DNA from: Candidatus Woesearchaeota archaeon
GTDB taxonomy: Archaea > Nanobdellota > Nanobdellia > Pacearchaeales > GW2011-AR1
NCBI GenBank assembly: GCA_964489675.1
Contig: CAZAZO010000002.1
Coordinates: 1 to 26,036, forward strand
Reading direction: 5' to 3'
DNA: 26,036 nucleotides
The notes under the pieces are model-generated. The model was not told the DNA's origin. It saw only the letters and a list, made by a program, of their open reading frames with translations, and did not search any database. The translations under genes and the position numbers were made by a program. Numbering within the stretch: the first letter of the stretch is position 1; each line of letters opens with the position of its first letter. Positions 3,111 to 26,036 of the stretch are shown in pieces.

Positions 3111-3113
3111 AAC

Positions 3114-8157: not shown

Positions 8158-8320
8158 ATTATGGGATATGGTTTCTCTAGGAGAAGGAGAATCACCCATA
8201 CCACTTACACTCCTAGACAAGAGTGAAAACTTTGAAAACATATATATTAAATTTAATAAAATTATAAAGCACAAGATGTGTGTTATTTTTGTAAGAACAA
8301 GGAACGAAAACAATGACTAA
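8147..8320 (+). CDS. Small hypothetical protein (57 aa)
   Basis: ATG 8147 follows GGAGG at 8136-8140, and the ORF overlaps both neighbours in the same style as the rest of the operon. No recognisable domain. Confidence 0.45.
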   Translation: MIYELWDMVSLGEGESPIPLTLLDKSENFENIYIKFNKIIKHKMCVIFVRTRNENND

Positions 8321-9296
8321 AAAGAGAGCCCTAATAACAGGCATTGGTGGACAAGATGGTAGCTACTTGGCAGAACACCTCTTAGAAAAAGGCTACGAAG
8401 TTCATGGCTTGATAAGGCGACATTCCGTCGCAGAAAATCAAGATAGTAGAATTACCAAATTTTCCAACCAAATAAAGACTTATTATGGAGATCTGTTAGA
8501 TGCCCCATCTTTAACAAGAATTTTTAATGAAAGTAAGCCAGATGAGATTTATAACCTTGCAGCAATGTCACATGTTAGGATAAGTTTCGATGTACCATCT
8601 TTCACTATTCAGACAAATGGTTTGGGTGTCTTAAATATGCTGGAAACATACCGAACTCTAGCACCTAATGCAAAATTTTATCAAGCTAGCTCATCAGAGA
8701 TGTTTGGAAATTCTGTAGATGAAGATGGTATACAAAGGCTTACTACACCTATGAACCCAGTTAGTCCTTATGGCTGCGCAAAGTTGTTGGGATACAATCT
8801 TGTGCGTCATTATCGTCATGCTTACAAGCTTCACGCATGTAACGGTATTCTTTTTAACCACGAGTCCCCACGCCGCGGAACGAATTTTGTGACAAACAAA
8901 GTGGTCAAAACAGCTGTAGAAATTAAATTAGGCTTAAAAGACAAATTAGAATTGGGAAATATGGACTCATTTAGAGATTGGGGACATTCAAAAGATTACG
9001 TTAGAGCGATGAATATGATAATCAATCACGAAACACCGGATGAGTTCATAGTAGCAACGGGACAAACACACTCAGTAAGAGACTTGTGTGATACAGTTTT
9101 TAAGAAGTTGGACTTAAACTATGAAGAATATGTAACACAAAACCCTAAGTTTATGAGACCAGAAGAATTGAAATACCTAAAGGGCGATGCATCTAAAGCA
9201 CAGAAGATCTTAGGATGGAAGCCGGAATATACTTTTGAAAGCATGTTAGAAGAAATGATAGAAAATTGGCAACAAAAATTAAAGGAGAAAACATGA
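8313..9296 (+). CDS. gmd: GDP-mannose 4,6-dehydratase
   Basis: Diagnostic motifs ALITGIGGQDGSYLAEHLLEKGYEVHGLIRR, YNLAAMSHVRISF, YQASSSEMFG, SPYGCAK, GILFNHESPRRG and LGNMDSFRDWGH. Confidence 0.95.
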   Translation: MTKKRALITGIGGQDGSYLAEHLLEKGYEVHGLIRRHSVAENQDSRITKFSNQIKTYYGDLLDAPSLTRIFNESKPDEIYNLAAMSHVRISFDVPSFTIQTNGLGVLNMLETYRTLAPNAKFYQASSSEMFGNSVDEDGIQRLTTPMNPVSPYGCAKLLGYNLVRHYRHAYKLHACNGILFNHESPRRGTNFVTNKVVKTAVEIKLGLKDKLELGNMDSFRDWGHSKDYVRAMNMIINHETPDEFIVATGQTHSVRDLCDTVFKKLDLNYEEYVTQNPKFMRPEELKYLKGDASKAQKILGWKPEYTFESMLEEMIENWQQKLKEKT

Positions 9297-9532: not shown

Positions 9533-9781
9533 ATGCCTGTATATATCTACAGCTGCAACAGTTGCAAGGAAGAATTTGAAGTAAGACACGGAATGTCTTT
9601 TAATGACCAGAAGTGTGTAATATGCAATAGTGCAGATGTGTTTAAGATACCGGCTTTAAGTATTGATCAGCACCGGCAGATACACTCCAACCGAGCCGGT
9701 AGAATTGTAGATAAATATATAAAAGAAACCAAAGAAACAATTGAGAAAGAAAAGATAGATCTCAGAAAGAGAGAATTGTAG
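9533..9781 (+). CDS. FmdB-like zinc-ribbon protein
   Basis: MPVYIYSCNSCKEEFEV...CVICNS has the MP-x-Y-x-Y-x-CxxC...CxxC signature. Confidence 0.8.
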   Translation: MPVYIYSCNSCKEEFEVRHGMSFNDQKCVICNSADVFKIPALSIDQHRQIHSNRAGRIVDKYIKETKETIEKEKIDLRKREL

Positions 9782-10074
9782 TGTGGGAAACATTTTTTAT
9801 TATAAGTTTTTTAGTTAATATATTTCTGCTCTTATATGCAAGGTGGTTAATAAAATCATATTCAGTGTTGATAGAAGATATATCTTCTATCAATGAGATG
9901 GTGCTTAAATTTACGGAACATGTAAAAAGTGTACATGAACTTGAGACATTTTATGGAGATGAGACTTTGAATTCTTTATTACAGCATGGAAGAGAATTGG
10001 TTGATAAAATAGGAAATTTGGATTTACTAACAGAAGATGAAGAAGATAATAAAGAAGAGACGCAAGAGAACTAA
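9781..10074 (+). CDS. Hypothetical protein with N-terminal transmembrane helix and acidic tail
   Basis: Hydrophobic N-terminus (FFIISFLVNIFLLLYARWLI), a helical or coiled middle and the acidic end TEDEEDNKEETQEN. GTG start overlaps the upstream TAG. Confidence 0.65.
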   Translation: MWETFFIISFLVNIFLLLYARWLIKSYSVLIEDISSINEMVLKFTEHVKSVHELETFYGDETLNSLLQHGRELVDKIGNLDLLTEDEEDNKEETQEN

Positions 10075-10744
10075 GAACAATTACTTCACAAAGGTACATG
10101 AACAGGCCATTGTGGAGTATGCGAATACTGGCTGTATAAAACAGAGGACAAAGTTATATGAGTCCTTAATCCAACCAGCATTTGAGGAGATGGTAAATAA
10201 AATAATTTTTACCTATAAGTTCAACAATCTGCCAAACATTGACCCTCTAAGAGAAGACTGTAAGATATGGTTAACAACTATATTGGATAAATACGACCCA
10301 AACAAGGGTTCAAAGGCTTTTTCTTATTTTTCGGTTGTGACAAAAAACTGGTTTATACATAAAGTAAAAGTTAATTCCAAAAGATTGAGAAGAGAAGTAT
10401 CATACGAAAATTTGGTAGAAACAGGCGGCTCAGATGTGTTGGGGACTTCTGATTCTGAAAGACAAGATTATCTCGAACAAAGAATAGAGATGGAATTTTG
10501 GAACTCACTGTTATTCCAGGTAGATAAGTGGGATACAGGAAATTTAAAACCTAATGAGAAAGCGGTATTGGAAGCAGTTAAAGTGTTGCTGAATAACATA
10601 GAGGATATAGAAATATTTAACAAAAAAGCAGTATACCTATATTTGAGAGAGCTTACAGGATTAAACACAAAGCAAGTCGTTAACAATTTGAACAAATTAA
10701 GAGAAAAGTATAGAATATTTAAATGTAAATGGGATAGAGAATAA
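10037..10744 (+). CDS. Phage-encoded RNA polymerase sigma factor (sigma-70 region 2 / T4 gp55-like late sigma)
   Basis: LDKYDPNKGSKAFSYFSVVTKNWF resembles sigma region 2.3 (FDPxKGxKFSTY) and is preceded by a region-2.2-like LREDCKIWL. A possible C-terminal HTH is present (YLYLRELTGLNTKQVVNNLNKL). Lacks region 1.1 and the length of a housekeeping sigma. Confidence 0.65.
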   Translation: MKKIIKKRRKRTKNNYFTKVHEQAIVEYANTGCIKQRTKLYESLIQPAFEEMVNKIIFTYKFNNLPNIDPLREDCKIWLTTILDKYDPNKGSKAFSYFSVVTKNWFIHKVKVNSKRLRREVSYENLVETGGSDVLGTSDSERQDYLEQRIEMEFWNSLLFQVDKWDTGNLKPNEKAVLEAVKVLLNNIEDIEIFNKKAVYLYLRELTGLNTKQVVNNLNKLREKYRIFKCKWDRE

Positions 10745-10749
10745 AAAGC

Positions 10750-10766
10750 GCAACTAGTCTATTTAT
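10750..10766 (+). promoter_or_regulatory. Candidate late-promoter motif (GCAACTAGT-CTATTTAT) directly after the sigma gene
   Basis: The 25-nt gap contains CTATTTAT (10759-10766), ending 3 nt before an ATG that has no SD. GCAACTA is also shared with the 23198 site. Confidence 0.35.
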
Positions 10767-10769
10767 GAT

Positions 10770-11069
10770 ATGAGTAAAAAAATAGAAAACTTCATAGAGA
10801 GAGCAAATCAAAATATCGTCGACGACCGCGCGGCAACTAAAACTTTGTTAATGACTATCATGAAATACATGCAAACAGGTGATGATAGACACAAGGAGGT
10901 CGGACTTATAGCAGCAAAATATTTAGAAACTCTACAGAGGTCAAATGAACAGCTAGTTAAACTTGCGTCTTTGATGCAAAAAAGTCAATCAGATGAAGCA
11001 GGAATATCCGATGAAGATAAACAGGAGTTATTTGACCTTATAAATCAGAAAGGCGAAAATGATGAATGA
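10770..11069 (+). CDS. Helical phage protein, possibly terminase small subunit-like
   Basis: Helical segment DRHKEVGLIAAKYLETLQRSNEQLVKL loosely resembles the T4 gp16-type R-x-x-E-V...N-x-x-L helix. The ORF itself is solid; the function is speculative. Confidence 0.4.
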   Translation: MSKKIENFIERANQNIVDDRAATKTLLMTIMKYMQTGDDRHKEVGLIAAKYLETLQRSNEQLVKLASLMQKSQSDEAGISDEDKQELFDLINQKGENDE

Positions 11070-11715
11070 TAACGCCAAAAATTTAGATGATATTGTTAGG
11101 AATATGGGCATCGCCGCGGCTCACTCTCAAACACCTAGTCAAAATCCCAATGACGACACCAGCGCATCCGGCAACAATTTTTTTGATTATTTGTTGAATT
11201 CTGTAGAATATTACGATTCTAAACTTCGAAGAAAATTCAAAGATTTAGAGTTTCCTGGTCTAATACTGCATACAAAATTACTTAAATCAAGGAAAGAATT
11301 GGAAAGTTTAACATGCAATGCTTTTGCTAATCAGATTGTAAAAAGCTCTACAAAGACTCATAAATATTGGGAAGTCCATGCTTATGTACAGGAAATTTCC
11401 GGACTCCTGCCACAGCCAACATTTTCGGATATGATGGGGTATGACGATGGTACTTTAGATAAATCTGGTAGAGATAGATATGAAACAATCGTCTCGCGTT
11501 TTACAAAATTCTACTGCTGCCGACGAAACGCGCCAAAGATTTTTGAATGTCACAGGGTATTGTTTCCGGATGAGAATTTCTTCTATTATGGTCTAATAGA
11601 AGAAAATAGTATATTACACAATTCTAGCGTATTGAAAAAAAATGAAAAGGCTATATTGGAAAAGCAAACCGGAGCCGGCAATAATGCATCCTATCTTGGC
11701 GGCATGATGAGTTAG
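11059..11715 (+). CDS. Hypothetical protein, possibly an OB-fold baseplate-hub/spike-associated subunit
   Basis: 218-aa ORF with an AAGG SD and alternating beta-like segments (GLILHTK, YWEVHAYVQEI, RVLFPDENFFYYGLI), directly upstream of the spike-like gene. Fold assignment is inference. Confidence 0.4.
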   Translation: MMNDNAKNLDDIVRNMGIAAAHSQTPSQNPNDDTSASGNNFFDYLLNSVEYYDSKLRRKFKDLEFPGLILHTKLLKSRKELESLTCNAFANQIVKSSTKTHKYWEVHAYVQEISGLLPQPTFSDMMGYDDGTLDKSGRDRYETIVSRFTKFYCCRRNAPKIFECHRVLFPDENFFYYGLIEENSILHNSSVLKKNEKAILEKQTGAGNNASYLGGMMS

Positions 11716-11743: not shown

Positions 11744-13114
11744 ATGGGAAAACGTACTGTAAAGAAAGGCGATTATCTAATAAAAATTGCCAGAGAGGAA
11801 GGTGTCACGCTAAAAGAACTAATAGCTGCAAATCCCCAAATTTCAGATCCAAACCTAATACACCCTGGAGATTCAATAAATGTTCCATCTTCTGAAGTCC
11901 CATCCGCGACTACATCCGGAGACAATTATACTGACGAGAACTCTCGCGCGCTGTCCGGAATGCAATCACCATCCGCGGCCGAAGAGGCAGGCGAATCAGG
12001 TCCCACCGGTGGTGAGCCTGTGTCCGAACCACCAGAGCCCGGGCTAAAAAGATTCATAAAAGGGCACCATGGAAAATATCATAAAGAGCATGAAGAATTC
12101 ATTAGCGGTGATAACGGCCTGTCCGGCAGTATCCTATCCGAACCTGTACCTGAATTTTTCGCCCGACCGGGCGATGGAATACTTACTGCGACTGAATTTT
12201 CCCAAGGAGCTAGCGATAATAATACGATGATTATTCTGGGCAGAGATCGAACCGGACTAGGAGAGATCGACTCCGCGGACCCTAACTTGGTCAAGTCAGA
12301 CTCAGGATATTCCAGCTATATGGGCGCCGGAGCAATAGATATAGTTGTAGGAAGGTGCTCTCCTTTTCCTTTAAGTATGGAAGGTAAGACCTGGAGTCCG
12401 CTTTTTAATACTCAAAAGAAAATACCAGAACTGAGAATGCAAACGCTGGAAGGAATTGAGAATAACACCCCCTTCTTTACATTTCACCCTGGGTATGTAA
12501 TGGACGCAGCAAGAATTTACATAAGTCAAATGACAGATATAGATGAGAGCTTTAAGATACAAAAAAAATTATTCTTTGGTGGTTCAATAAAGCAAAAAAC
12601 AAATAAAAGAACACCATGTTCTGGAATTATGTTAAAGGCTGACAAGATAAGAATGCATTCAAGATCGGATGTAAAAATTGTAACAGGTGGTCCCCATGAG
12701 ACTGTAAACTCGCAGGGAAATGATATTACTGAGGTTGGTGGGATTCACTTGATGGCAGGAAATCAATCTTCAAACCAGCAGCCAATTCCACTCGGAGATA
12801 ACTTGGCAAGAGTTCTGGATCAGTTGGTTGATAAGGTTGATGATTTAGCTTCAATTGTGTTTTCGCTAGCACACAGTCAAATGAAATTTAATAATATACT
12901 GGGAACGCACTGCCACCAGTCGCCCATGTATGGTATCTCAACGACACCATCCCTAACAGCAGCACCAGCCTCAGTTGAAGCGGTGTTGAATCAATTTTCG
13001 AGAGTTACGAATCAGATCGTATATTTGCAAAGAAATTTAAGTGGCTTTAGGGGAAATTATTTAAGATATGGCTCGGGACACTATATAAACAGTAGTTACA
13101 ATACGACGAATTAA
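11744..13114 (+). CDS. LysM-domain protein fused to a baseplate central spike-like (gp5/gpV C-terminal-like) domain
   Basis: Residues 2-48 form a textbook LysM (TVKKGDYLIKIAREEGVTLKELIAANPQISDPNLIHPGDSINVP). A Ser/Glu/Pro linker follows, then short beta repeats (TMIILGRDR, AIDIVVGR, ARIYISQ, IMLKADKIRM, VKIVTG, GIHLMAG) and an HxH motif (HCH, nt 12908-12916). Located upstream of gp25- and gp6-like genes. LysM is certain; the spike call is contextual. Confidence 0.65.
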   Translation: MGKRTVKKGDYLIKIAREEGVTLKELIAANPQISDPNLIHPGDSINVPSSEVPSATTSGDNYTDENSRALSGMQSPSAAEEAGESGPTGGEPVSEPPEPGLKRFIKGHHGKYHKEHEEFISGDNGLSGSILSEPVPEFFARPGDGILTATEFSQGASDNNTMIILGRDRTGLGEIDSADPNLVKSDSGYSSYMGAGAIDIVVGRCSPFPLSMEGKTWSPLFNTQKKIPELRMQTLEGIENNTPFFTFHPGYVMDAARIYISQMTDIDESFKIQKKLFFGGSIKQKTNKRTPCSGIMLKADKIRMHSRSDVKIVTGGPHETVNSQGNDITEVGGIHLMAGNQSSNQQPIPLGDNLARVLDQLVDKVDDLASIVFSLAHSQMKFNNILGTHCHQSPMYGISTTPSLTAAPASVEAVLNQFSRVTNQIVYLQRNLSGFRGNYLRYGSGHYINSSYNTTN

Positions 13115-13131: not shown

Positions 13132-16100
13132 ATGCCAAGACTATTAGAAGAGATATTTATAATAAATTCAGAAACAGGAGCACAATATATCCCATTTTTT
13201 AGGAGATATATAGGAGATTCTGGTAGAGACATTGCGGCAGTAAAGGAGGCTCTTGGTGAAATATATTACATACCACAAGACCAACCTAGTGGGAGCCCTG
13301 AAGATAATAGTATTGGAGAATCATGGTTTGAGTGTGCAAGTAATACGCCAGTAACTCAGAAAAAGATAAAAACTTTTGACAGATCATTGAAAATCAGACT
13401 GATGAATTATCAGTTGCAAAATCAGTTTGTAATGTTAAGTTACTATTTTGAAAAATATGGTGTGAGAAGTGTCACTGACAGTGAAAGCTTAGACATCCAA
13501 GTGCAAACTGCAATTAACTTTTACGATTCTGAATTTGGCTCAATTGGGGAGGCTACTATAGCTTGTCTACATGGTTGGCGCCCAAACAGTATAGCATATA
13601 ACCATTCATTCGTGACAGATGGCCCAATAGTTATTGATCAAGTACCTCAAATGTTTAAAGATCTAATTGAACAGGAGGTTATTTCCGAGCCTAGTGAATA
13701 CAAGGTTATGAAAATAGCAACAAACCAATCATCTGACTTTTCAGATATAGCAGAGGATTTTGACAGAACAACTCACTCTTCAAAGAAGTTATTAAATATT
13801 GTGTCCGACACTCCTGTTGTTTATCCTGTCTATAAGCCTGCGTCATATATTGGAAACATTGTAGACAGTGAACTTTATGCAGCCGCACAGCAAATAATGT
13901 CAACTGGTATAGAGATGGATATTCACGAATTGAGAGCCAATGATAGATATCGCGCGCTATCTCCAATGCTTGAACCAGACCCTCTATCAGATCCAGATCC
14001 TTTTGAGTTAGGTGGTGGAAAATTAGGTTTTTTTGATAGAACAGAATTTACACTAGAGACGCTTCCGAATTTTACAAATACGCCGGCACAACTCAGAATA
14101 CTTATGGAAGACAACGCACTCCATAAAGTACTGAAGTTCTATAACAAGCCATTAATATGGCACCTTTCAAAAGATCTTGGACCTTTGGATGAAGTTTTTT
14201 TTGCAAATGAAGAATCTGAAGAAAAATATTTAAATATAATTAAAAATGAAGAACACTATAGAGTGACCACTAGAGCGGCCATCGCAGAATATTCCTTAGA
14301 AGAAACTCAATATGATGCCATATATGGAGAACACTTAAGTGCAGTAAACAAACAGATTCCAATAACCTTCATAGAATATAGAACACCTTCATTGAGACCT
14401 GGAGATGTCTATAGATCATATTTTGAAATACCGCACGCAGTGCTTAATCTAATCAACACAGGTGAAAGTGATATAGATTTGAGACCTTCTAATGCAAATA
14501 TCGGGGAACTTAACACTGAAACACTCTCCTTTATGCAACAAGAAGTTGCAAACATGTATTGTATTGAGAATGCGAATAGTGAAGAGGGCGCTAGATCTAA
14601 ATTTGAAAAATATAAAGCCTTTGCAATGAAAAGAAAACTAGAAATTTCTAGAAACATGCGAGACGCTGCGACTCAAGCGTCATTAGGTCAAGAAGTTAAT
14701 GTTGACATGGGTGTGGCAGGAATACTGTTTGATGACTTTTCATTAACCGGCGAGGATATAGTGGAAGCTAGCTTTGAGGGGATCTCTAATATCATTAATA
14801 GATTTGCCAGTCCACAAGAGAAGCCAGATAGCATCCGGATGTCAGTTAAGTTATTTGACGAATCAATTCAAGCACTCGAGAAAGTTTTTAGAAGTGATAA
14901 AGTAGCAGAAGATGTAAAGAAATTTAAAATATCATCATCCTCTGGGGCCCCTCTAAATCTTATTTTAGAAGCAGATAATTTAGCTTCATTTCCAAATTAT
15001 CTTCAAAATTTGGCATACTCTCACACCCCCCTTCAAGCAGCCGCAAAAGCTAAGAATATGACAGTTTCAGACCTAATGAAAGCAACGTCGACACTTGTCC
15101 AGGGTACTAGTTACAAGATTGACTTTAAGGGCCTCCAGATATCTCAAATTTCAGTTATCAATATAACAAGAGGCATCAACGAGGTTATCTATAGAGTAGA
15201 TGATAAAAGCTATAATAATCTTCGTGGAGCTATGGCTTTGCCTCGTACAGTGAATTATGTTAGAAACATAAACAATATTTTACCCTTACCTCCTGATAAT
15301 TTTTTGGGATACTTAGAAGATTTCATCGGTTTAACCTCAACGCCTTGTTCTGATTCATCAGACGATGCATCCTTACCGGCTGCGCTAATATTAAGGTATA
15401 CAATAAACAATTCCGGAAATCCTGTATCATTTGAGTTTGATTTTGACTATCAGAATGCACTGCACAACTGGAAGGAAAATATACTACAATCGGAAGAGAT
15501 AACAAGACTTAAAGATTTTTACAATGATGTTACAAAGAATCCATTTGATCTCGACGGGCCCGCTTGGGGCGTTGACACTATTTTGCCTGAAATCGGACCA
15601 ACGTGCGACTTGAAAGAAATATACAGGGATGTGGTTAGTAAGAAAAACATGTCAAAACTTTTATGCAATTATTTGACATGTTTGAAAATACCAGACGTAA
15701 ACGTTAAAATACCGAAACTTATGTTGCCAGAATTTGAGGACATCCCGGTATTCGCATTTCCAGGTTTAAAGGATCTTGGAAGGCAAATACTAGAAGCTAT
15801 TGAGGCGCTTTTTACAAGAATTGTTTGCGCGATAGTTAAAAACATACTTGATATACTCTCAAGTCCTTTCTGTGAAGATCAGATGATTCGAGATCTTTAC
15901 GGCGCTGCAGCTAATAATAGCTCGGATGTTCAAAGAGCTTTCGCATCAGCTTTTCTAGATGTTGGAATACCATCAGAAAAAACCACGAATGTATCAGAAA
16001 TGTTAGATGATTTGATAAACTTTTTAACTCCTCGGGAACTCTGCGCACTCTTAAACGGAGACCCAGTAAACGCAGAGGTTTATAGTATGATAGAGAATCT

Positions 16101-19100
16101 TGCTTCCAATTATAATCTATCAGAAGAGATGAGCGGAAGAGAAAGAATAGTTTCTTTTTTCACGGGTTTGGGCGTTTATATTCCTGATGAAATATGCGAA
16201 ATGTTAAATTCCAATAATATATTGGGTGTTGAAAATTGTGAAGATACAGCAAATTTATTAACTCAAATTAGAAACGCTGCAACCCGCGGTGAGGTAGACC
16301 CTCAGCAGGTTGAGGATGCAGTTGCACAATTGGAAAAGAATTTGATGGATAAGAGTAGGGCTTACGAATTGTTGACTGGAGAAGTCTCACTTCAAGATAT
16401 GTTTCCAGACATGTTAAGTGGAGACTTATCAGATAGTCAAGCTCTCAAGGAAACTGCACAAATTGCAGTGGACACAACGTTGCAGATAGTCAAATCTAGT
16501 TTTCTGTCTTCTATGAACTCTTATGTTTCATCACTGTATTTGGATGTTGAGCAGCTGGTGTCCATAGATGATGCAGAGTATGACCCCATTGCAACAATGA
16601 AATTTTTAAGAGCAACAAACAACTTGCAAAAAGTTCAAAGTTTTAATTTATCAGATGCGGATTTTCAGTCTCAAATATTAACGCTTTACCTTAGAAGTAC
16701 GCTAATGAGGCTTTGCGACGATTATGAAAAGGTTCAATATGGCGACTTCGAAGTGTACAGGAGCCAATTACAGCCCTTAAATAGAGAAGATATCTCCTCT
16801 CCAGAAGAACAAGCAGAACAAGTATCTCAAAACATTGAGGATTATCAAGAAAATCAACAAGAGTATTCCCCATACGGAAACATATCTACCGGACTGAAAG
16901 GTTCTTTAATATATGGTCATGATATTTCAGAGGAACTCAAGGATACAGGCTTTAAAAGCCTAAGAGGGATGGACAGTACTGACAGGCTTGAGGCGCGCCT
17001 AAGGGTTCAAAGTGAACAGATATTTTCAAATGTATTTGAATACATGTTCCCTTTATCTGTTGAGATACAGCCGCTGAATCAGGAATTGACAGACCAGTCC
17101 GAAGAGCCAGTTTTGTCCGCAGAAACAACAACGGAGATAATAAACAGTTGGAATTCATTTTCTTTAGATAAATACAAGGGTTCTAATTTTTACCCACCCG
17201 GTGGAGATGGAGTTCAATATGATAATGACCCTAGAAATATTTCAATAAATTTGTCATATTTAAGGGCTATAGTTTCAGTAATTAGTAGACTCCAACAAGA
17301 CATAGAACAAAGTTTAGAGGCGGTTTTCAAAATAGTAAATACAGAAAGTTTATTAGAAGTAATAAGAGACTTTTATAATATAAATTTAGAAGCACTAAGG
17401 GAAGAAGCAGAACAGTTAGAACTTAGTCGGGGACAATTGATAAAAACTGACTTGATATCATCTGGCCAAACGATAACACTGGAACACCCAGTCGTAAATG
17501 ATGCAGGCACAAGTTTGATGTCTACCCTTATGACCGATAAGACCGTAAGTAGAAATTTTATAAGCAACCGCACAAAGATAAAGGACGCCTTTTTTCTCGG
17601 TTCAGAAGCCAATCCGGAGACTGAAATTTCATTATGCGAAGAAATACCAGAACAATATAAGGACTTTTTCTCAGAACAGGTCACTGACAATCCGCTGAGA
17701 AGAAAAGTGTTCAAAGAGCAACTCACTAGAATTGCAAAACATTACTATGATAATTACAAAACCGAAGGCTCTGAGGAGTTTGAAAACATCGGAGAGATAT
17801 CTTTACTTGACGAGGCAGAAAATGAGCAGTACCTAAACGTATTGGAGGGGGTTGTTGAGCAGATGATTTCCTATATGGGAACATCTAGAATGTTCACTGA
17901 TGAGGATTATATAGTTCGCTTAGATTCAAAGCTTAAAGCACGCCCTTATTTCCAACCTCAGGGTGATAACTATTGCATTGTAAATCCCATGGGGTCTTTC
18001 AATGAGGGCGCCATCAAATTTGATGAAATAATAGCTGATAGGTTCCCGAAAGAATATGCAAAAGAATTAGCAGATCCTGCAAACTCTATATATACGATAG
18101 ATTATTCAAAACCCGGCCCTTTCGAGAAAGCAATGATGACAACTGTGATATTGGGATATGTTAAAGTTGTGTGTTTGGAAGCTCTTCTTAAGGGAGCGGT
18201 AGCTTACAGTACTTGGGACGTAGACTTTATAACTCCAGATCCACTATTTAAGCAGTACATATATAAATTGGTAGAGAATGCTATAAATAAACAAGAAATA
18301 TTTCAAGAATATCCAACACTAGTAGACGATGCTTTTAGAAAAATTTCAGGTACAAATAATAGAATATCTGCAATAAGAAAAATTGTAGACACCGAGCTAG
18401 CAACGTCTATTTCGACACTATCAAAAGTTCTGTTTGAGAACAGCAACCAGCAAAATTATGTTCACTGGTTTTTAAACAGAATGTTTATAGTTGATGCACC
18501 ATGGAACAGAAGAGGCGACAATAGCGAGTGGATTTCGGAACTTTCAGAGGCTGACATAAATCAATACAGAAAGAACTCTTTCACATACATGGAGAGATAC
18601 GTAAGAACGAATGGTCAATTAAACGGAATCCTACCAAACCCAGAAGGGTTGGCGGAAACTCAAAAAGAAGCCTTGTTTGATTTTATTAGGTTTGAAGACT
18701 CAAACTATAGTCAAACATTCTTCGATAAATTACATACAGCTTCAGATCCTGAATTTATGGAAATTCCAATAGTACTAGACATCCCAACTCGACAACAAAC
18801 TGAAAATTTTGATATAGGAAACCAAGGAAATTTACTGGAACTAAGTTTAGATTTGCTAGATAATGATCAGTGGCCTGAAAAAGAATTATACTCCCTAGAA
18901 GACTTTAACCAATTGATGATATCAATATTTCAGAACAACCCTGGTGTACAAAAATATATCTTTCATTTACTTAAAAAATATTACGATGAGGCAGATCAGG
19001 GCTCGATTTGGCATGGAAAACCGAAAACACTGAGAAATAAGATGCCGATAAAGGCAATAAAAAGAAGAAGAGCACATTATAAATTTGAAAAAGAAGACTT

Positions 19101-22100
19101 GTTTTCAACTAGATTTGCAGAAGATTTTGAAGGTTTCCTTAATACCACGGCCGGCGGCGGGGCAATACCAAGAGATCAAGCTTCGAAAGAATTGCATAAT
19201 TATATTATGCCCGGCGCTGAACCCAATCGCTCCTCAGGTGACACGGGATTCAATGATTCGGATTACGATTATATAAGATTCGAGGATAGATATTATATAT
19301 CTTCAGTACCCGGGCATGAACTTTTTGACGAAACAGCACAAGATGAACAAAAGGGTATAAAACTTGATGTTCCGTACAGAGCCGGAGACGGCTTTAGTTC
19401 TCAGTCACCACCGCGCGGTATTACTGTCATGAAAGGTAATTCAAATCCTATTTCGCCATGGGAAGAAGGAGCATATAGTGGAGGCTCCGATCCATCAAAC
19501 CCAGTAGATAAAATAGAAGCAGTATTGGAACCATGGGTTGGCGAAAGGACAGGTTTAAATCCGGGAGCTGTGGTTTATGAAAATATAACAGGAAAAGTTT
19601 CAGAATCTCAATACCAAGCTTATACAGATTCCACCTCGGGAATATTGGAGGAAGAAATTTGGGATGAATATGTTATAGATTTAATCGGAGATGCATCACC
19701 TTTCTTTAATCAGCCAGGACATTCGAACTTTGACCCGGAGCAGGAAATATCTGTATCTCAAGCTGACAATATTTCGCGGTACCTCGATGATGCCTCTAAT
19801 ATAGAGCAATATTACCAAGGTAATAGATATGCAATAAAAAAAGGATTATTTTGTCCAGCAGATCAACCCGAACGCACCGGCGCCGTTTTTAATGCAGTTA
19901 TTCACCAAGACCGCGGTCACGATTCGGGGGATGTATGTGATTCGGGCCAGCCCAACAACGCCGGAGTAGCAGTATACATAAGTAGGGGCCCTGGATTTGA
20001 AAAACACATACAGGATACACCCGAGCGCAACATTTTCGTCGGTCAACATGCATTTTTTCGTAATGATGTTAAAGCTCGCTTTGATTCTTCGAAGGGTTGT
20101 TATGTTATAGATTCTAATTCAAAAATTCTCTTAGAACATAATGAATACAAAATACCGGTCAGAATACTAATAACGCAAGTAAAAAATTCATCTGGAAATA
20201 TAGATAAGGTGTTTGTTAGGTACCTGGTACCACAAGTTGTGACGTTTTCAGTTCAAAGTCAACGAGGCGGAGCCATATCCACTGCAGTGCTCGAAACTTC
20301 TAAGGGTTATGTACAATTTTATGAAGATATACTCGAAAAAGGTTTATCTGAGGGTAATCAGCGCGCAACGGCCTTCAGGGCAACTACCCTCCCCACCAAG
20401 ATTGAAGATGCTGAATATAAAACTGATAGAGGTCGAGAGATTTTTGCAGCAGCTCAATATCTCATGGGCGATGATAGTGCCTATGGAGTAGGTATGCACA
20501 ACCCAGTATTATATAGGGATAACTTCCAGAAGCTTCCAGGGCAGTCGTCACATGGTCCTAACTTTTTCTCTATTTCAAAACTGTGGTCTGTTGCTGCAGG
20601 AAACGAGGCATCTCAAGGAAAAGGCCATTTCGTATCAGATTCAGAATCATCATCGCACTCGGAATTTGACAAATTCTTCAAACATAATGTAGGAAAGCTT
20701 TTAAGAAAACCATCTGGACTGGTGCAGAGTATGGACAGCCTTGAGTCATCATTCCCTGTTACCCTAGACTCTCAAACAATGCCGGGAACACATGCACTAG
20801 ATTCGAATAATTTAAATTACGGTGAAACTCTCTTAAAAAGAAATTATATGTATCACAGGGCATCTCAGCATTCATTATATGAAATGGATGTTGAAAATAT
20901 GATAAAAACCGATAGACGTTCATCATTGGTGAGTATTGGCAATCTAGTAGGGTGGTTTTCTCAAAGGAGAATTGATGGTTTTTATGGCGCCACCTCAAAA
21001 GACTGTAAGGGCTCTTTTAATATTGAGGGGGTCATTGCACCTAGTGCCCCGCAAGGCACAAATGTTTCTATGGAAGTACTTAGGGATGAAGCTGCAGATT
21101 TTGACTGTGGTCCTTCATTATTTTACGGAGACGGTAGAACCACAATAGAGGCTTATATGTCCTCCTTATACTCTTATTTGTCTGAAGAACTCGGGGGAAA
21201 TTTGGACACGCCGGCTTCTGCTATCTTTTATAACAATTACTTCGAGGCATTTAGGGAGCAAAATATATATAAAATTTGCCCTAGTATTTTCAGGACACCT
21301 ATAGAGGCGCCAAGTGCTCAAGGACCAGGCCTTTGGCAAACTGAGAGGCCAGAGCAATCTGATAGGCCAAAAACTTTAACAAATCATAAAAGCGATATTC
21401 GAACTGGCCAAGTTTTGCTAAACTCAATCCAGAGGGATTTTTGCGAGCTAGCTCAATACGGGTCGTCTAACTCACGCATGTCTGCTTATCCTATTACCGC
21501 TATTGGACCCGAAGAGTATGTTCTTGGAAACGAGTCTGAGACTTATCAATTTTTTTCAAGTTTAAATTTAGCATCTCTACCACGCGGTAATATTGATTTT
21601 GCTTTTTATAATCCCAAAAGAATTAACGAGAGCAGCGGTCTCCCTGAGCCATTGTATGATCAAATCAAGACAGATGTTCAGATTGGTTCGCGAGCAGCGG
21701 GGGCCCCCGAAACGGTTCAAGAAAATATTGACATCTTTTTAGGTGAAATTAGAAATCTTCCAAATTTATCTAGTTATTATGCAAGAATAGAAGAAGAGAA
21801 ACAAAGATATCCAGAAATACTAGAAGCGGAAAGTGATAGATTCAACAGATCACTGCAGTGGGCCAGTAACTTAATATCAGAGCTTTATAGGATTATGGCA
21901 GGCCTTAACCCTGAAGCCATAGGATTATTGGAATCACTAGATGCTAAGCATGGTATGAGAATGAATGTTGTACTTGGGCAGGACAGTTCTGACTTTGAAA
22001 ATATGGCATCTTTACTCAATGACACGAGAACAGTTTTTAACAATCTCTGGGGACAATCAGAAGTTACAGAAGAGGAAAGAATAGGAAAGATACATTACAG

Positions 22101-23190
22101 AACCGGGCGTTCTGGGATAGAACAATTTGAGAATTACACTAGTGTGCCTATAGCTTTTCACGAAAGACCATTATTTTTACCAGACATCTGTCAGCCCGCT
22201 GAACTCACAAATTTCGTCGGATTACCAAAATTAATTCGCTCAAGAGACCAGGAGATGCTAGAGGCATTGTCGCAAGTACCAGAATTTAAAACCTTTTATG
22301 AATTTTGTATACCATACAGAAGAATGGCCTCTCTATTGACGGTACACAGCACTTCGATGCTGGCAGGATATAGTGATATGCCATCCATCTTAAGTTCCAC
22401 TAGGTCTTCTCTAGCTGGAGTTTTTAAAATAATGGCAGAAAGAAATGATTTTGATTCAAGATCACCAAAGGTATTTGGACCTAAATTTAATAATATTGAA
22501 ATAATGAATGCTATGAATTCAAGCTTTCCCGCCGGCGGAGAAAAATTAGATTGTTTTTCCCTACCGGGCACGGACGAGTGGTTTACAATGATAAAAGAAA
22601 TGATAGTGCAATTTATAAAATATTTTCCAGCTGTTATACTCCGAGGCCTCGCTGACCAAATGGATCCAATGTACAAGGAAATGAAAAGTCACTATTTTGC
22701 TTGCGAGATTCCATTTTTGAGCACACAGTCGCTGACTATGCGAAGCGGAAAAGATAAAATTGAATTTGGGCTAAAAGGTACGGAAAAGGGTAAAAAGAAA
22801 TATGCCCCTGTCTTTCCTAGTTTTCCAGTTGATTTGGGTATAGGCTTATCTAGGCTCTTTTCGAATGGAGACCTTTCTTATCTAGGTATTTCTGTTGATA
22901 AAATGATTTCTTACGCTATAGGAGGTCCAAGGCAATTGATAGATGCATCCTACGCTTTCCAAATTCCATGCCTAGAAGATGACAAATTTAACAGAACAGG
23001 AGACTTTAGAGGTTGGAGTAAATACAGAATTGGCAATCACGGCCGTTATGGTCATCCATTAACTCTGTTGGGCGGCCTAGCTTTAAGTACACGCCATCTA
23101 CCTAGAGACCTAGAGTATAGAAGTCAAGCTTGTCAGATACAAGCGAGAGCAGGCACTGCGCCACAAGTTTGTGATGATGACGAGGAATAA
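13132..23190 (+). CDS. Giant 3352-aa acidic protein of unknown function in the baseplate module, with a degenerate N-terminal peptidoglycan-binding-like domain
   Basis: Uninterrupted 10,059-nt ORF with AGGT SD. N-terminal GDSGRDIAAVKEALG...FDRSLKIRLMNYQ...GSIGEATIACL resembles the three-helix PG_binding_1 pattern with insertions. Confidence 0.75.
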   Translation: MPRLLEEIFIINSETGAQYIPFFRRYIGDSGRDIAAVKEALGEIYYIPQDQPSGSPEDNSIGESWFECASNTPVTQKKIKTFDRSLKIRLMNYQLQNQFVMLSYYFEKYGVRSVTDSESLDIQVQTAINFYDSEFGSIGEATIACLHGWRPNSIAYNHSFVTDGPIVIDQVPQMFKDLIEQEVISEPSEYKVMKIATNQSSDFSDIAEDFDRTTHSSKKLLNIVSDTPVVYPVYKPASYIGNIVDSELYAAAQQIMSTGIEMDIHELRANDRYRALSPMLEPDPLSDPDPFELGGGKLGFFDRTEFTLETLPNFTNTPAQLRILMEDNALHKVLKFYNKPLIWHLSKDLGPLDEVFFANEESEEKYLNIIKNEEHYRVTTRAAIAEYSLEETQYDAIYGEHLSAVNKQIPITFIEYRTPSLRPGDVYRSYFEIPHAVLNLINTGESDIDLRPSNANIGELNTETLSFMQQEVANMYCIENANSEEGARSKFEKYKAFAMKRKLEISRNMRDAATQASLGQEVNVDMGVAGILFDDFSLTGEDIVEASFEGISNIINRFASPQEKPDSIRMSVKLFDESIQALEKVFRSDKVAEDVKKFKISSSSGAPLNLILEADNLASFPNYLQNLAYSHTPLQAAAKAKNMTVSDLMKATSTLVQGTSYKIDFKGLQISQISVINITRGINEVIYRVDDKSYNNLRGAMALPRTVNYVRNINNILPLPPDNFLGYLEDFIGLTSTPCSDSSDDASLPAALILRYTINNSGNPVSFEFDFDYQNALHNWKENILQSEEITRLKDFYNDVTKNPFDLDGPAWGVDTILPEIGPTCDLKEIYRDVVSKKNMSKLLCNYLTCLKIPDVNVKIPKLMLPEFEDIPVFAFPGLKDLGRQILEAIEALFTRIVCAIVKNILDILSSPFCEDQMIRDLYGAAANNSSDVQRAFASAFLDVGIPSEKTTNVSEMLDDLINFLTPRELCALLNGDPVNAEVYSMIENLASNYNLSEEMSGRERIVSFFTGLGVYIPDEICEMLNSNNILGVENCEDTANLLTQIRNAATRGEVDPQQVEDAVAQLEKNLMDKSRAYELLTGEVSLQDMFPDMLSGDLSDSQALKETAQIAVDTTLQIVKSSFLSSMNSYVSSLYLDVEQLVSIDDAEYDPIATMKFLRATNNLQKVQSFNLSDADFQSQILTLYLRSTLMRLCDDYEKVQYGDFEVYRSQLQPLNREDISSPEEQAEQVSQNIEDYQENQQEYSPYGNISTGLKGSLIYGHDISEELKDTGFKSLRGMDSTDRLEARLRVQSEQIFSNVFEYMFPLSVEIQPLNQELTDQSEEPVLSAETTTEIINSWNSFSLDKYKGSNFYPPGGDGVQYDNDPRNISINLSYLRAIVSVISRLQQDIEQSLEAVFKIVNTESLLEVIRDFYNINLEALREEAEQLELSRGQLIKTDLISSGQTITLEHPVVNDAGTSLMSTLMTDKTVSRNFISNRTKIKDAFFLGSEANPETEISLCEEIPEQYKDFFSEQVTDNPLRRKVFKEQLTRIAKHYYDNYKTEGSEEFENIGEISLLDEAENEQYLNVLEGVVEQMISYMGTSRMFTDEDYIVRLDSKLKARPYFQPQGDNYCIVNPMGSFNEGAIKFDEIIADRFPKEYAKELADPANSIYTIDYSKPGPFEKAMMTTVILGYVKVVCLEALLKGAVAYSTWDVDFITPDPLFKQYIYKLVENAINKQEIFQEYPTLVDDAFRKISGTNNRISAIRKIVDTELATSISTLSKVLFENSNQQNYVHWFLNRMFIVDAPWNRRGDNSEWISELSEADINQYRKNSFTYMERYVRTNGQLNGILPNPEGLAETQKEALFDFIRFEDSNYSQTFFDKLHTASDPEFMEIPIVLDIPTRQQTENFDIGNQGNLLELSLDLLDNDQWPEKELYSLEDFNQLMISIFQNNPGVQKYIFHLLKKYYDEADQGSIWHGKPKTLRNKMPIKAIKRRRAHYKFEKEDLFSTRFAEDFEGFLNTTAGGGAIPRDQASKELHNYIMPGAEPNRSSGDTGFNDSDYDYIRFEDRYYISSVPGHELFDETAQDEQKGIKLDVPYRAGDGFSSQSPPRGITVMKGNSNPISPWEEGAYSGGSDPSNPVDKIEAVLEPWVGERTGLNPGAVVYENITGKVSESQYQAYTDSTSGILEEEIWDEYVIDLIGDASPFFNQPGHSNFDPEQEISVSQADNISRYLDDASNIEQYYQGNRYAIKKGLFCPADQPERTGAVFNAVIHQDRGHDSGDVCDSGQPNNAGVAVYISRGPGFEKHIQDTPERNIFVGQHAFFRNDVKARFDSSKGCYVIDSNSKILLEHNEYKIPVRILITQVKNSSGNIDKVFVRYLVPQVVTFSVQSQRGGAISTAVLETSKGYVQFYEDILEKGLSEGNQRATAFRATTLPTKIEDAEYKTDRGREIFAAAQYLMGDDSAYGVGMHNPVLYRDNFQKLPGQSSHGPNFFSISKLWSVAAGNEASQGKGHFVSDSESSSHSEFDKFFKHNVGKLLRKPSGLVQSMDSLESSFPVTLDSQTMPGTHALDSNNLNYGETLLKRNYMYHRASQHSLYEMDVENMIKTDRRSSLVSIGNLVGWFSQRRIDGFYGATSKDCKGSFNIEGVIAPSAPQGTNVSMEVLRDEAADFDCGPSLFYGDGRTTIEAYMSSLYSYLSEELGGNLDTPASAIFYNNYFEAFREQNIYKICPSIFRTPIEAPSAQGPGLWQTERPEQSDRPKTLTNHKSDIRTGQVLLNSIQRDFCELAQYGSSNSRMSAYPITAIGPEEYVLGNESETYQFFSSLNLASLPRGNIDFAFYNPKRINESSGLPEPLYDQIKTDVQIGSRAAGAPETVQENIDIFLGEIRNLPNLSSYYARIEEEKQRYPEILEAESDRFNRSLQWASNLISELYRIMAGLNPEAIGLLESLDAKHGMRMNVVLGQDSSDFENMASLLNDTRTVFNNLWGQSEVTEEERIGKIHYRTGRSGIEQFENYTSVPIAFHERPLFLPDICQPAELTNFVGLPKLIRSRDQEMLEALSQVPEFKTFYEFCIPYRRMASLLTVHSTSMLAGYSDMPSILSSTRSSLAGVFKIMAERNDFDSRSPKVFGPKFNNIEIMNAMNSSFPAGGEKLDCFSLPGTDEWFTMIKEMIVQFIKYFPAVILRGLADQMDPMYKEMKSHYFACEIPFLSTQSLTMRSGKDKIEFGLKGTEKGKKKYAPVFPSFPVDLGIGLSRLFSNGDLSYLGISVDKMISYAIGGPRQLIDASYAFQIPCLEDDKFNRTGDFRGWSKYRIGNHGRYGHPLTLLGGLALSTRHLPRDLEYRSQACQIQARAGTAPQVCDDDEE

Positions 23191-23232: not shown

Positions 23233-23625
23233 ATGTTTCAACCAAAATACCCGCTCGAATTGTCTGATGTCGATGGCGCATATAGGGGGATTAGAGACTT
23301 ACAGGAAAATGTAAAACAAAATGTAAGATTTCTCTTGCTGACATCTCCCGGTGAGTGGCCCGGGCGCCCAGAAATAGGTGTAGGTATAAAAAGGTTTTTG
23401 TTTTCAAATTATCCTTCACCAGAATTATTAAGTATCCATAAAACGATAAGAGAGCAATTTTCTAGATATATGCCATTCGTAGAAATAGAATCCGAATTGT
23501 TGGATAAAGATGCTAACGGTGTGAGTTTTATAGATAGGAATGAAATTAAATTAATTGTTAAATATAGGATACCCTCTTTGAAGATATCAGAATACATGGT
23601 TTTAAGCATGGGGGATACAGTATGA
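23233..23625 (+). CDS. Baseplate wedge protein, GPW/gp25 family
   Basis: 130 aa. ENVKQNVRFLLLTSPGEWPGRPEIGVGIKRFLF matches the gp25 pattern (QNxxxLLxTxxGERxxxPxFG) with substitutions, and IREQFSRYMPFV matches the IxxWxPxV-type helix. Lies directly before the gp6-like gene. Confidence 0.85.
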   Translation: MFQPKYPLELSDVDGAYRGIRDLQENVKQNVRFLLLTSPGEWPGRPEIGVGIKRFLFSNYPSPELLSIHKTIREQFSRYMPFVEIESELLDKDANGVSFIDRNEIKLIVKYRIPSLKISEYMVLSMGDTV

Positions 23626-23682: not shown

Positions 23683-25488
23683 ATGCCTAAAAAAATTATT
23701 CCAGTAGATTACACAAGTACAGACTTTGAGAAAATAAAGAGAGACCTGGTAAACTATGCAAAAAAATATTATCCAAATACATACAAAGATTTTAATGAAG
23801 CTTCATTCGGTTCTTTAATGACAGACTTAGTTGCGTATGTCGGTGATAATTTGTCTTTTTACTTAGATTACAATGCAAATGAATCTTTTTTAAATACGAG
23901 CTTGGAATACGATAATGTTATTGGTCACGCTCAACAATTAGGATACAAGCATCACCCATTCAGATCGTCGATTGGGGAAGTCGAAATTTTATTACCAATA
24001 CCTGCAGATGACGTTAATGTTGCACCAGACACTAGATATTTACCTAGAGTATCAAGAGGTACTTCTTTCGCCACACCTGGTGGTAGTGTCTTTACACTAA
24101 TAGATGACATAGAATTCTTAAATAGTGACTCAGAAATTGTAGCGAATCAGACTTCTGCAGATGGCTCAAAGGTTACTTACTATATCGTAAAGGCTACCGG
24201 ACGCGTTGTTTCTGGAGAGGAGAATCAGACAGTCATAGAAGTTGGAGATTATAAAAGATTTTTAAAGCTCCGAATTCCAGGATCGAATATATCAGATGTC
24301 ACATCAGTTGTGGATTCTGGTGGGAACGAATATTTTGAAGTAGATTATTTAAGTCAAAACACGGTCTATAGACCAATAATGTCTAGAACAAATATTTCGA
24401 ATGATGTGGACCCCACCGCGCCTGCTATAATGAAACCTTACCCTGTTCCAAGGCGTTTTGTAGTGGAGAGGAGTGGTGATGATGTGTATATTGTGTTCGG
24501 GTACGGATCGGAATCAGAACTAAAGGACAATTTGGTAGCAGATCCTTCGGAGGTAGTTTTAGATATCGCCGGAAAAAATTACGTTTCCGACACGAGCTTT
24601 GACCCAAGTAAACTAATGACAACGGATAAATTCGGAGTAACCCCAGTAAATACAAACTTGACAGTTACTTATCGAACAAACACAGTCGAAAACACAAATA
24701 CAGGTACAAACACCATAACAACAGTCGTTTCTCCTTTGGTAGAATTTAGGGATGTACAAGAATTAGAGACTGCAAAAATAAATTATATACTAGGAAACAT
24801 AGAGGTGACTAACCCTTCTCCAATTAATGGAGATATTACCACACCAACAACAGAAGAAATAAAAAGAAGAGCATCAGCGACATTCGCCATGCAAGGGAGA
24901 GCCGTCACTCTGCAAGACTATATATCAGCAACTTATGCAATGCCGGCCAATTTTGGCTCTATAAAGAGAGCCGCGGCCTACAGGGACAACGACGACTTTC
25001 GTAGGAATATGAATCTTTACGTTATAGGGGAAGATTCTAATAGTAAATTGCAGCGTTGTTCTATGTCTATTAAGCAAAATCTTAAGACATGGTTGAATTC
25101 CATAAGGATGATTAATGATAGTTTAGACATTTTAGATGCCACAATAATAAATTTAGGAGTAGAATTTACGGCCTTGTGCCCTCGGGATATAAATAAGAAC
25201 TCCGTATTTAATGAAGCAAAAGAAGAGATATTTTTAAGACTAAATGAAGTAAAGCCAGAAATAGGCGAACCATTTAATTTGACAGATATCTTTAAAATAT
25301 TGAAAGATGTGCAAGAGATAATAGATGTAACAGACATACGAATAACTTCGAAGTCGTCATCTAGTCATTCAAGTTTCCAATACAATGTGGATGCAAATAT
25401 GTCAGAAGAAGGAAGGATGATATATATACCAAAAAATTGCATTTGGGAATTGAAATTTAGAAACGATATAACAGGAACAATATTATAA
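23683..25488 (+). CDS. Baseplate wedge subunit, T4 gp6-like / baseplate J-like
   Basis: N-terminal YTSTDFEKIKRDLVNY...YKDFNEASFGSLMTDLVAYVGDNLSFYLD...ESFL and C-terminal QGRAVTLQDY are characteristic of gp6-like wedge proteins. The 601-aa length fits the T4 gp6 class. Confidence 0.85.
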   Translation: MPKKIIPVDYTSTDFEKIKRDLVNYAKKYYPNTYKDFNEASFGSLMTDLVAYVGDNLSFYLDYNANESFLNTSLEYDNVIGHAQQLGYKHHPFRSSIGEVEILLPIPADDVNVAPDTRYLPRVSRGTSFATPGGSVFTLIDDIEFLNSDSEIVANQTSADGSKVTYYIVKATGRVVSGEENQTVIEVGDYKRFLKLRIPGSNISDVTSVVDSGGNEYFEVDYLSQNTVYRPIMSRTNISNDVDPTAPAIMKPYPVPRRFVVERSGDDVYIVFGYGSESELKDNLVADPSEVVLDIAGKNYVSDTSFDPSKLMTTDKFGVTPVNTNLTVTYRTNTVENTNTGTNTITTVVSPLVEFRDVQELETAKINYILGNIEVTNPSPINGDITTPTTEEIKRRASATFAMQGRAVTLQDYISATYAMPANFGSIKRAAAYRDNDDFRRNMNLYVIGEDSNSKLQRCSMSIKQNLKTWLNSIRMINDSLDILDATIINLGVEFTALCPRDINKNSVFNEAKEEIFLRLNEVKPEIGEPFNLTDIFKILKDVQEIIDVTDIRITSKSSSSHSSFQYNVDANMSEEGRMIYIPKNCIWELKFRNDITGTIL

Positions 25489-26036
25489 TGTCAATAAAAA
25501 GATACTCAGCAACAAAAGACAATACAATTTCAAGTGCTTTTAAGATCAATTTATCAGATAAAGCTCTGACCTCCAACATGGGTTCTTCAGACATTTTGGA
25601 AGTTTTTTCTATCTTTGGACAAGCAAGTTCCACTTCTTTGGAACAATCTAGAATATTAGTAGCTTTTGAAATAGATAAGATATATTCTGATAGGCAAGCT
25701 GGAATTATACCTGCCTCTGGTTCTGCAAAATTTAAGTTAAAGATGTTTAATGCAGAACATAATCAGACGGTACCAGAGAGGATAACTTTAACCGCGATCC
25801 CCCTCGTAAAAGAGTGGAGCGAAGGCTCGGGTCTTGATATGGAAAGTTATTTGGACGTAGGGCCAAGTAGTTGGAACTCAGCTAGCACCGGTGTGGCATG
25901 GACAAACTCTGGTGGGGATTTCCTATCTTCTAGTTATATTGCTTCTTCTCCGGTTCCTTTGAGTTATACACAGTTTTTAGAATCAGGGTTAGAGAGTGTA
26001 GAAATAGACGCCACTGATATTGTTGAACAAATGCTT
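25488..26036 (+). CDS. Putative virion structural protein (DNRLRE-like beta-sandwich); 3'-truncated by the window edge and absent from the ORF track
   Basis: ATG 25488 overlaps the gp6-like stop (TAATG). The frame stays open for 183 codons to the edge: MSIKRYSATKDNTI...QSRILVAFEID...FKLKMFNA...EWSEGSG...AWTNSGGDF...EIDATDIVEQML. The SRIL-x-x-F, W-x-E-G, W-x-x-x-GGD and D-x-T-x-IV elements resemble DNRLRE/CBM96-type domains. Confidence 0.65.
   Translation, partial: MSIKRYSATKDNTISSAFKINLSDKALTSNMGSSDILEVFSIFGQASSTSLEQSRILVAFEIDKIYSDRQAGIIPASGSAKFKLKMFNAEHNQTVPERITLTAIPLVKEWSEGSGLDMESYLDVGPSSWNSASTGVAWTNSGGDFLSSSYIASSPVPLSYTQFLESGLESVEIDATDIVEQML

Follow-up and report, generated by a model that had tools for sequence, protein, structure and literature searches.

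A giant gene in a contractile-tail baseplate module

The window analysed here is a 26,036-nt stretch of contig CAZAZO010000002.1 (positions 1 to 26,036, assembly GCA_964489675.1, deposited under Candidatus Woesearchaeota archaeon). Its most prominent feature is a single open reading frame (ORF) of 3352 aa, running from ATG to stop at 13132..23190 (+) and filling 38.6% of the window. We refer to its product as the giant. All genes flanking it lie on the same strand. Upstream, separated by 17 nt, is a 456-aa gene that we call the partner (11744..13114, +); downstream are genes for a 130-aa gp25-like baseplate wedge/sheath-initiator protein (23233..23625, +) and a 601-aa gp6-like baseplate wedge protein (23683..25488, +). 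An open frame of this length in DNA of 37% G+C indicates that the giant gene is real and not a chance reading frame, as does its conservation across dozens of homologues from metagenomes, which keep its full length and collinearity.

The gp6 assignment is the firmer of the two downstream identifications, being based on phrog_219 (3e-19), TIGR02243 and tblastn matches to annotated gp6 genes. The gp25 assignment, made previously in a reading of the window from sequence alone (hereafter the sequence-only reading), also holds, though more weakly: the protein matches phrog_261 (5e-12), and its Pfam GPW_gp25 score of 26.6 bits falls under the cut-off of 27.2. The partner consists of an N-terminal LysM and a conserved orphan core, and it is always found immediately upstream of the giant, at sizes of 335–514 aa in relatives. 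The LysM is present in the window and its closest relatives only; elsewhere the N-terminal extension is different or missing. Metagenomes contain 1224 clusters of homologues of the core (residues 120–456), none of them annotated, and no PDB relatives of the partner were found apart from those of LysM.

Much of what the sequence-only reading said of the giant itself was confirmed. It had described a single 10-kb ORF covering 39% of the window with no obvious tandem repeats; Tandem Repeats Finder detected none in the gene, and self-BLASTP found no internal repeats in the protein. The acidic regions it noted are reflected in a net charge of -169, and its Cys cluster in the alignment, where six cysteines (of 30 in the protein) are invariant and three nearly so. 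The loop-rich centre corresponds to a region with a Gly/Ser/Pro/Asn (G/S/P/N) fraction of 0.28–0.34 that varies across the family. The helical character is also seen, since helix makes up 46–53% of modelled residues, in short helices of at most 34 residues. Two descriptions did not survive. A motif had been allowed for at the N-terminus, and the N-terminus matches no library motif either. The C-terminus had been called hydrophobic, and no 19-residue window there exceeds a mean Kyte-Doolittle hydropathy of 0.94 anywhere in the family. Over the whole giant such windows reach 1.79 at most, with peaks confined to residues 893 and 1668, both of which have charged residues inside. We rejected a membrane-spanning giant, as the family has no conserved transmembrane-grade segment.

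The giant belongs to a conserved, collinear family

A search of 5.8 billion proteins returned 42 homologues of the giant, all metagenomic (Tara, ENA, JGI, Logan and a few NCBI assemblies) and all 3028–4524 aa long except one of 2437 aa. None of the 42 has a Pfam domain or an informative name. When 1.84 billion cluster representatives were searched exhaustively with HMMER, an N-terminal profile matched 153 of them; the long ones are nearly all 2500–4500 aa, and the remainder are mostly short fragments. Members from IMG/VR span 2659–4693 aa, and full-length members overall measure between about 2560 and about 4700 aa. Family members (P0002–P0043, P0047–P0076, P0141, P0159 and others) share collinear N-terminal, Cys-rich, middle and C-terminal blocks and a position upstream of gp25. 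The remotest long matches, P0141 (3461 aa) and P0159 (3957 aa), align collinearly with the family hidden Markov model (HMM) over the whole span between the N-terminal block and the C-terminus. Because the family is always giant and collinear end to end, remote members included, these comparisons imply that the whole protein is under purifying selection. The entire family is also acidic (net charge -104 to -176) and carries 24–30 Cys. We found no description of it in the literature on giant baseplate genes in marine phages.

Among 185,579 GTDB species genomes, the sole match is a 9252-bp contig, NZGS01000004.1 (L041). This contig is binned into the metagenome-assembled genome "Rhodospirillaceae bacterium MED674". 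It is probably a phage contig binned together with a cell genome, and it offers at best a weak hint that Rhodospirillaceae are hosts of the phage lineage.

In the family alignment, residues 1–350, 400–550, 700–1200 (Cys-rich), 1550–1850 and 3000–3352 are conserved, and residues 1880–2900 are variable and gap-rich. AlphaFold2 models were built for residues 1–1200 and 2153–3352, each on a 14-sequence alignment. The most conserved block, residues ~30–440 (13219..14451, +), is modelled as a mixed alpha/beta domain with a predicted local distance difference test (pLDDT) score of 70–90, and contains the family motifs GRDIxAVKxALG, HGWRP, EPDPLxDPDPF and RTPSLRPGDVYRAYF. A second confident alpha+beta domain follows at residues ~560–720 (14809..15291, +), with a beta-sheet at 659–688. 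The Cys-rich block at residues ~720–1200 (15289..16731, +) is all-helical in the model (63% helix, zero strand) at low confidence. The invariant cysteines are C739, C845, C850, C914, C971 and C1036, and the nearly invariant ones C825, C899 and C1022. Beyond it lie the conserved middle block, residues ~1540–1860 (17749..18711, +; motifs PGPFEKA and LLKGAxxYSVWD), and the G/S/P/N-rich variable centre, residues ~1880–2900 (18769..21831, +). The centre carries large indels and is nearly lost in a distant subgroup (for example P0034), where it is down to about 116 aa. The conserved C-terminal block, residues ~2990–3352 (22099..23187, +), has six conserved Cys and the motifs FRGIADxIDPAYKEMKxHY and GRYGHP.

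The two models differ in quality. That of residues 1–1200 has a mean pLDDT of 59 and is confident at 30–440 and 560–720; that of residues 2153–3352 is poor (mean pLDDT 49). Both have a strand content of 8–9%. Helical parts of the models carry low pLDDT, whereas the alpha/beta domains are confident.

Sequence and fold searches match the giant to no known family

For the giant, neither PHROGs nor NCBIfam nor Pfam, the last with its threshold relaxed to E <= 1, gave a credible match, and none of 17 relatives (13 diverse, 4 remote) had a Pfam match. A set of 50,697 phage records likewise yielded nothing to megablast or to tblastn (the latter with residues 1–2999). Profile searches against PDB sequences were made with residues 1–1215, 1250–1880, 1880–2500 and 2153–3352, which together leave only residues 1216–1249 uncovered; no E value was lower than 0.026, and such weak matches as appeared were short and helical. 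For Foldseek we used a threshold of E <= 0.001, searching the PDB twice (with both models) and BFVD with residues 1–1200. For residues 1–1200 the best E value was 0.9 in the PDB and 0.019 (with a TM score < 0.1) in BFVD, neither counting as a match, and residues 2153–3352 matched nothing in the PDB.

These searches bear on specific kinds of tail protein. No gp27-type hub domain or PAAR motif was found by Pfam, PDB profiles or Foldseek. The oligonucleotide/oligosaccharide-binding fold (OB-fold) and trimeric beta-helix of central spikes were absent from Pfam results, from Foldseek of residues 1–1200 and 2153–3352, and from hhalign comparison with T4-like gp5. No similarity to tape-measure proteins was detected in Pfam, PHROGs, NCBIfam or PDB profiles, nor by Pfam in the 17 relatives. 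The giant also does not have the profile of a tail fibre or receptor-binding protein: its C-terminal block is among the most conserved, repeats are absent and strand makes up only 8–9% of modelled residues. Polymorphic toxin, Rhs and PAAR domains were found in none of 18 family members, and no adjacent immunity gene was found. The claim of the sequence-only reading that the protein has no assignable family thus stands for every class searched (tape measure, fibre, hub, spike and PAAR), and the structure prediction and Foldseek searches that it proposed returned no fold match for either model.

The giant has a fixed place between the partner and gp25

Gene order was compared across the window, 26 loci from IMG/VR and 14 from ENA, JGI, Logan and NCBI. 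In the window and in 23 of the 23 loci where both flanks are present, the order partner, giant, gp25, gp6 is identical and on one strand, and it is retained in the remote P0159 locus. Upstream of the giant the order is a small ORF, a Zn-ribbon gene, an ORF of ~100 aa, one of ~235 aa, another of ~100 aa, an ORF of 168–268 aa and the partner. Downstream, gp25 and gp6 (~600 aa) are followed by a further ORF (mostly ~610 aa) and, in most loci, by a second giant. In keeping with the slot given in the sequence-only reading, the giant is directly upstream of gp25-gp6 in all related loci.

The second giant is 3600 to >4200 aa long, and in the two loci with recorded Pfam hits it has Laminin_G_3 (concanavalin A (ConA)-like) domains; examples are L004:24520-30356, L006:27806-33575 and L040:23909-29711. 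With this gene following gp6 and the next ORF in most loci, the lineage devotes >20 kb to two proteins. The contigs that carry the giant reach about 190 kb; two long ones are IMGVR_UViG_3300030330_006619 (190 kb) and TARA_SAMEA6053336 scaffold_28 (179.5 kb).

Outside the family, gp6 is 28–33% identical to its counterparts in Microcystis phage Mel-JY01, Flavobacterium phage immuto (which has a portal, protease and capsid of T4 type) and a 484-kb uncultured phage, LR756508. The 235-aa ORF, gp25 and gp6 have homologues in all three, and the 99-aa ORF has a weak match in two. In place of the giant, these phages have three small ORFs totalling about 900–1000 aa. One of them, a 343-aa ORF of Mel-JY01, has an endolysin/chitinase-like (lysozyme-like) C-terminal half (phrog_181, 1e-32). 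The family HMM had no match in the baseplate regions of the three phages. We also considered whether the partner corresponds to the first of their slot ORFs and rejected the idea, as the hhalign link is weak and unconvincing (E 0.002–0.1).

Two annotated phages help to place the slot. In the T4-like Morganella phage vB_Mm5, the annotated order is gp53, gp5 (hub subunit/tail lysozyme), a 703-aa ORF, gp6, gp7 and gp8. The 703-aa ORF (L046:2852-4963) is itself unannotated; its position between gp5 and gp6 indicates that classical T4 relatives, too, admit additional variable genes in the slot just upstream of the wedge genes. In Synechococcus phage Sf-CH11, a giant "virion structural protein" of 3275 aa lies downstream of gp6, and its positional counterpart is the second giant.

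To compare rates of divergence we used protein identity between the window and the related locus L004. Identity is highest for the 235-aa ORF (93%), the 99-aa ORF (83%) and gp6 (81%), intermediate for gp25 (72%), and lowest for the partner (58%), the giant (52%) and the 218-aa ORF (50%). The last three are therefore the fast evolvers of the module, ahead of gp6 and gp25, a pattern that would be expected for parts at the host interface.

Other genes in the window

The 218-aa ORF (11059..11715, +) immediately precedes the partner and occupies a fast-evolving syntenic slot (168–268 aa in relatives). The left edge of the syntenic block is formed by two very conserved small genes of 235 and 99 aa (10037..11069, +). 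The product of the 235-aa gene (10037-10744) weakly matches a family of late sigma factors (phrog_234, 1.7e-4), and the 99-aa ORF has only sub-threshold YscG-like matches; the pair may encode late-transcription factors instead of structural proteins. The zinc ribbon gene is at 9533-9781. At the right end of the window, 25488..26036 (+) holds the first 183 codons of the ~610-aa ORF, interrupted by the window end. Its ATG shares one base with the stop codon of gp6 (25486-25490), which suggests translational coupling of the two genes inside an operon.

The left third of the window, 452-9296, is a sugar-nucleotide and glycosyltransferase cluster. It encodes a GT2, a FUT8/NodZ-like fucosyltransferase, a split transketolase, two epimerase/dehydratases, a methyltransferase and a GDP-mannose 4,6-dehydratase. 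The transketolase (4046-5777) is split into a thiamine pyrophosphate (TPP)-binding N-terminal half and a pyrimidine-binding half in two overlapping ORFs, and is an unusual enzyme in a phage glycan pathway. A sugar island is present upstream of the module in every relative (in L004 at L004:1-5285), with a pathway that differs between them. The window has the GDP-mannose dehydratase/fucosyltransferase type, L006:1-5934 a nonulosonic acid type (NeuB and a CMP-transferase), and L040:429-6408 GT1/GT4 genes with PfkB and a cytidylyltransferase-like gene. No such island was found in the 15–20 kb upstream in the three giant-less relatives.

The sequence-only reading had proposed the giant as the most obvious candidate substrate of these glycosyltransferases, an idea that has no support beyond proximity. 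The sugar clusters vary among relatives while the architecture of the giant is constant, and their target could equally be the host surface or other virion proteins. Sugar clusters have been argued to modify the host surface in pelagimyophages (PMC7029224).

Interpretation of the giant and its alternatives

The lineage is one of uncultured marine contractile-tailed phages, distant from T4 and nearest to Mel-JY01 and immuto. Within it, the giant gene is a fixed component of the baseplate operon and takes the place of the small hub/spike-slot genes of relatives. The T4-like order gp53-gp5-X-gp6 and the lysozyme-bearing ORF of Mel-JY01 together place the giant in the slot for central hub/spike components, where T4-like phages have genes for gp53, gp5 and spike accessories. 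This is the slot of the T4 gp5/gp27/gp5.4 hub-spike, after a small baseplate gene and just before the wedge genes, and in all loci the giant lies beside gp25/gp6 as a central-spike gene would. The likeness extends to cell-wall functions, since one occupant of the Mel-JY01 slot carries a lysozyme-like domain and the giant adjoins a peptidoglycan-binding module.

We tentatively favour the reading that the giant is a virion protein particular to this lineage, occupies the central hub/spike slot and acts with the partner in envelope penetration, although we would put this somewhat below an even chance. The peptidoglycan-binding LysM of the partner in the window and closest relatives is consistent with such a role, as is the conservation of the N- and C-terminal blocks around a centre that is variable and partly dispensable. 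In this arrangement, the conserved N-terminal alpha/beta domains and the C-terminal block would dock the giant, with the partner, to the centre of the hub and wedges, and the variable loop-rich centre would be the exposed, host-facing part. Sheath contraction would then drive the giant complex into the envelope, where it would be released, standing in for the gp5-type tail lysozyme/spike.

Several observations weigh against this interpretation. No hub, spike, OB-fold, beta-helix or PAAR signal emerged from the sequence and fold searches, and hhalign of giant blocks against the slot ORFs of relatives and against T4-like gp53, gp5 and the 703-aa ORF was negative. The giant has roughly six times the length of T4 gp5; it is acidic, rich in Cys and for the most part helical, and no lysozyme domain was detected in it. 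Confidently modelled residues amount to only about 40% of the 1–1200 model and almost none of the 2153–3352 model. The cyanophage does not have gp5 beside gp25, so the positional argument is partly weak. Finally, three copies of the giant would bring some 1.1 MDa to the tail tip, a mass that to our knowledge is unprecedented for a central spike.

A different possibility is a tape-measure-like role, in which the giant would be an internal tail protein that sets tail length, is ejected first and carries additional globular domains. Such a fusion is reported for oversized tail proteins in jumbo myoviruses, phiKZ gp181 among them. The giant resembles tape measures, including those of jumbo type, in its size, its place among baseplate genes, its conserved ends and its centre of variable length. 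Helix accounts for about half of the modelled residues, residues 720–1200 are strand-free, the roughly 30 kb around the gene, in loci that do not extend to the sheath and tube genes, show no alternative tape-measure candidate, and the top BFVD rows include tape-measure proteins, none of them significant (E >= 0.02, TM < 0.1). Nevertheless, the window protein matches no Pfam or PHROG tape-measure model and the 17 relatives none in Pfam, the longest predicted helix is 34 residues rather than the very long helices typical of rulers, and residues 30–440 and 560–720 are confidently modelled as globular alpha/beta domains in a non-repetitive protein with many invariant Cys. At ~1.5 Å per residue, proteins of 2560–4700 aa would also imply tails of roughly 400–700 nm, yet the contigs are only <= ~190 kb. 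We regard a tape measure as unlikely. A related proposal makes the giant (~370 kDa) an acidic, disulfide- or metal-stabilised tail-axis machine that sits on the spike or in the tube and is expelled into the host envelope to form or guard a DNA conduit, as a new-fold counterpart of the cargo of type VI secretion systems (T6SS) and extracellular contractile injection systems (eCIS), or else a ruler for contractile tails of at least 400 nm. This too we consider doubtful.

The position of the gene within the baseplate operon would also suit a peripheral appendage or adhesin, a decoration of the baseplate that would attach to the host surface without piercing it. Fast evolution and a variable centre are in keeping with this, and giant virion structural proteins adjoin gp6 in cyanomyoviruses, as in Sf-CH11. 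A VrlC-type giant virion structural protein, a gp7 substitute, lies downstream of gp6 in cyanomyoviruses and pelagimyophages (PMC7029224). It shares with the giant a length of >3000 aa and a place in the baseplate operon of marine T4-related phages, but the giant described here is upstream of gp25 instead, and the two, like the giant and the cyanophage protein, have no detectable sequence similarity. Moreover, the C-terminus is conserved rather than variable, repeats and lectin, Ig and collagen-type domains are all absent, the predicted structure is mostly short helices and not beta-rich, and the fibre position of the lineage is already taken by a separate second giant that bears Laminin_G_3 (ConA-like) domains, all of which makes an appendage improbable. 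Less probable still is a spike-linked cargo or effector injected into the host, as T6SS/eCIS toxins are, or a non-virion late protein. The gene does adjoin spike/wedge genes, as large VgrG/PAAR-Rhs cargo proteins lie beside the spike and gp25-like genes of contractile machines, and the protein is very acidic, Cys-rich and like no structural fold. However, the 18 family members show no toxin, enzyme, Rhs or PAAR signature, gp25 is directly next to the giant where an immunity-like gene might be sought, and the entire architecture of 3–4.7 kaa is collinear and conserved in contrast to modular polymorphic toxins. We give very little weight to a polyprotein cleaved at assembly into baseplate/hub parts that replace the three small ORFs of relatives. 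Its distinct conserved blocks separated by gap-rich linkers, and the three separate ORFs in the same slot, fit such a scheme, but no block of the giant is like those ORFs, neither a protease domain nor a recognisable cleavage motif was found, and the total is >3 times the size of the genes replaced.

With respect to the sequence-only reading, its spike-associated giant is retained as a fixed, syntenic part of the baseplate module, whereas the designation of the upstream gene as a spike is unsupported, an N-terminal LysM being the sole identifiable part of that gene. It had offered an ejected conduit, a delivered effector or a baseplate appendage as alternatives. No transmembrane-grade segment that would support a membrane conduit was found, nor any toxin or Rhs-type cargo domain, and the present data do not tell the three apart.

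Significance

The giants form a new, unannotated protein family in a known kind of machine. The baseplates of contractile tails are generally seen as assemblies of a few conserved parts, and here ~10 kb are given to one non-repetitive, unmatched protein in the hub/spike slot. The gene makes up several percent of the longest contigs in a marine lineage that is widespread in Tara, JGI and ENA samples, for which the family offers a convenient marker. Large, conserved genes that cannot be annotated are present in the core structural modules of abundant ocean phages. If the giant is a true virion component, it would represent a new way of penetrating the envelope or of building the tail tip, and it would supply several new protein folds.

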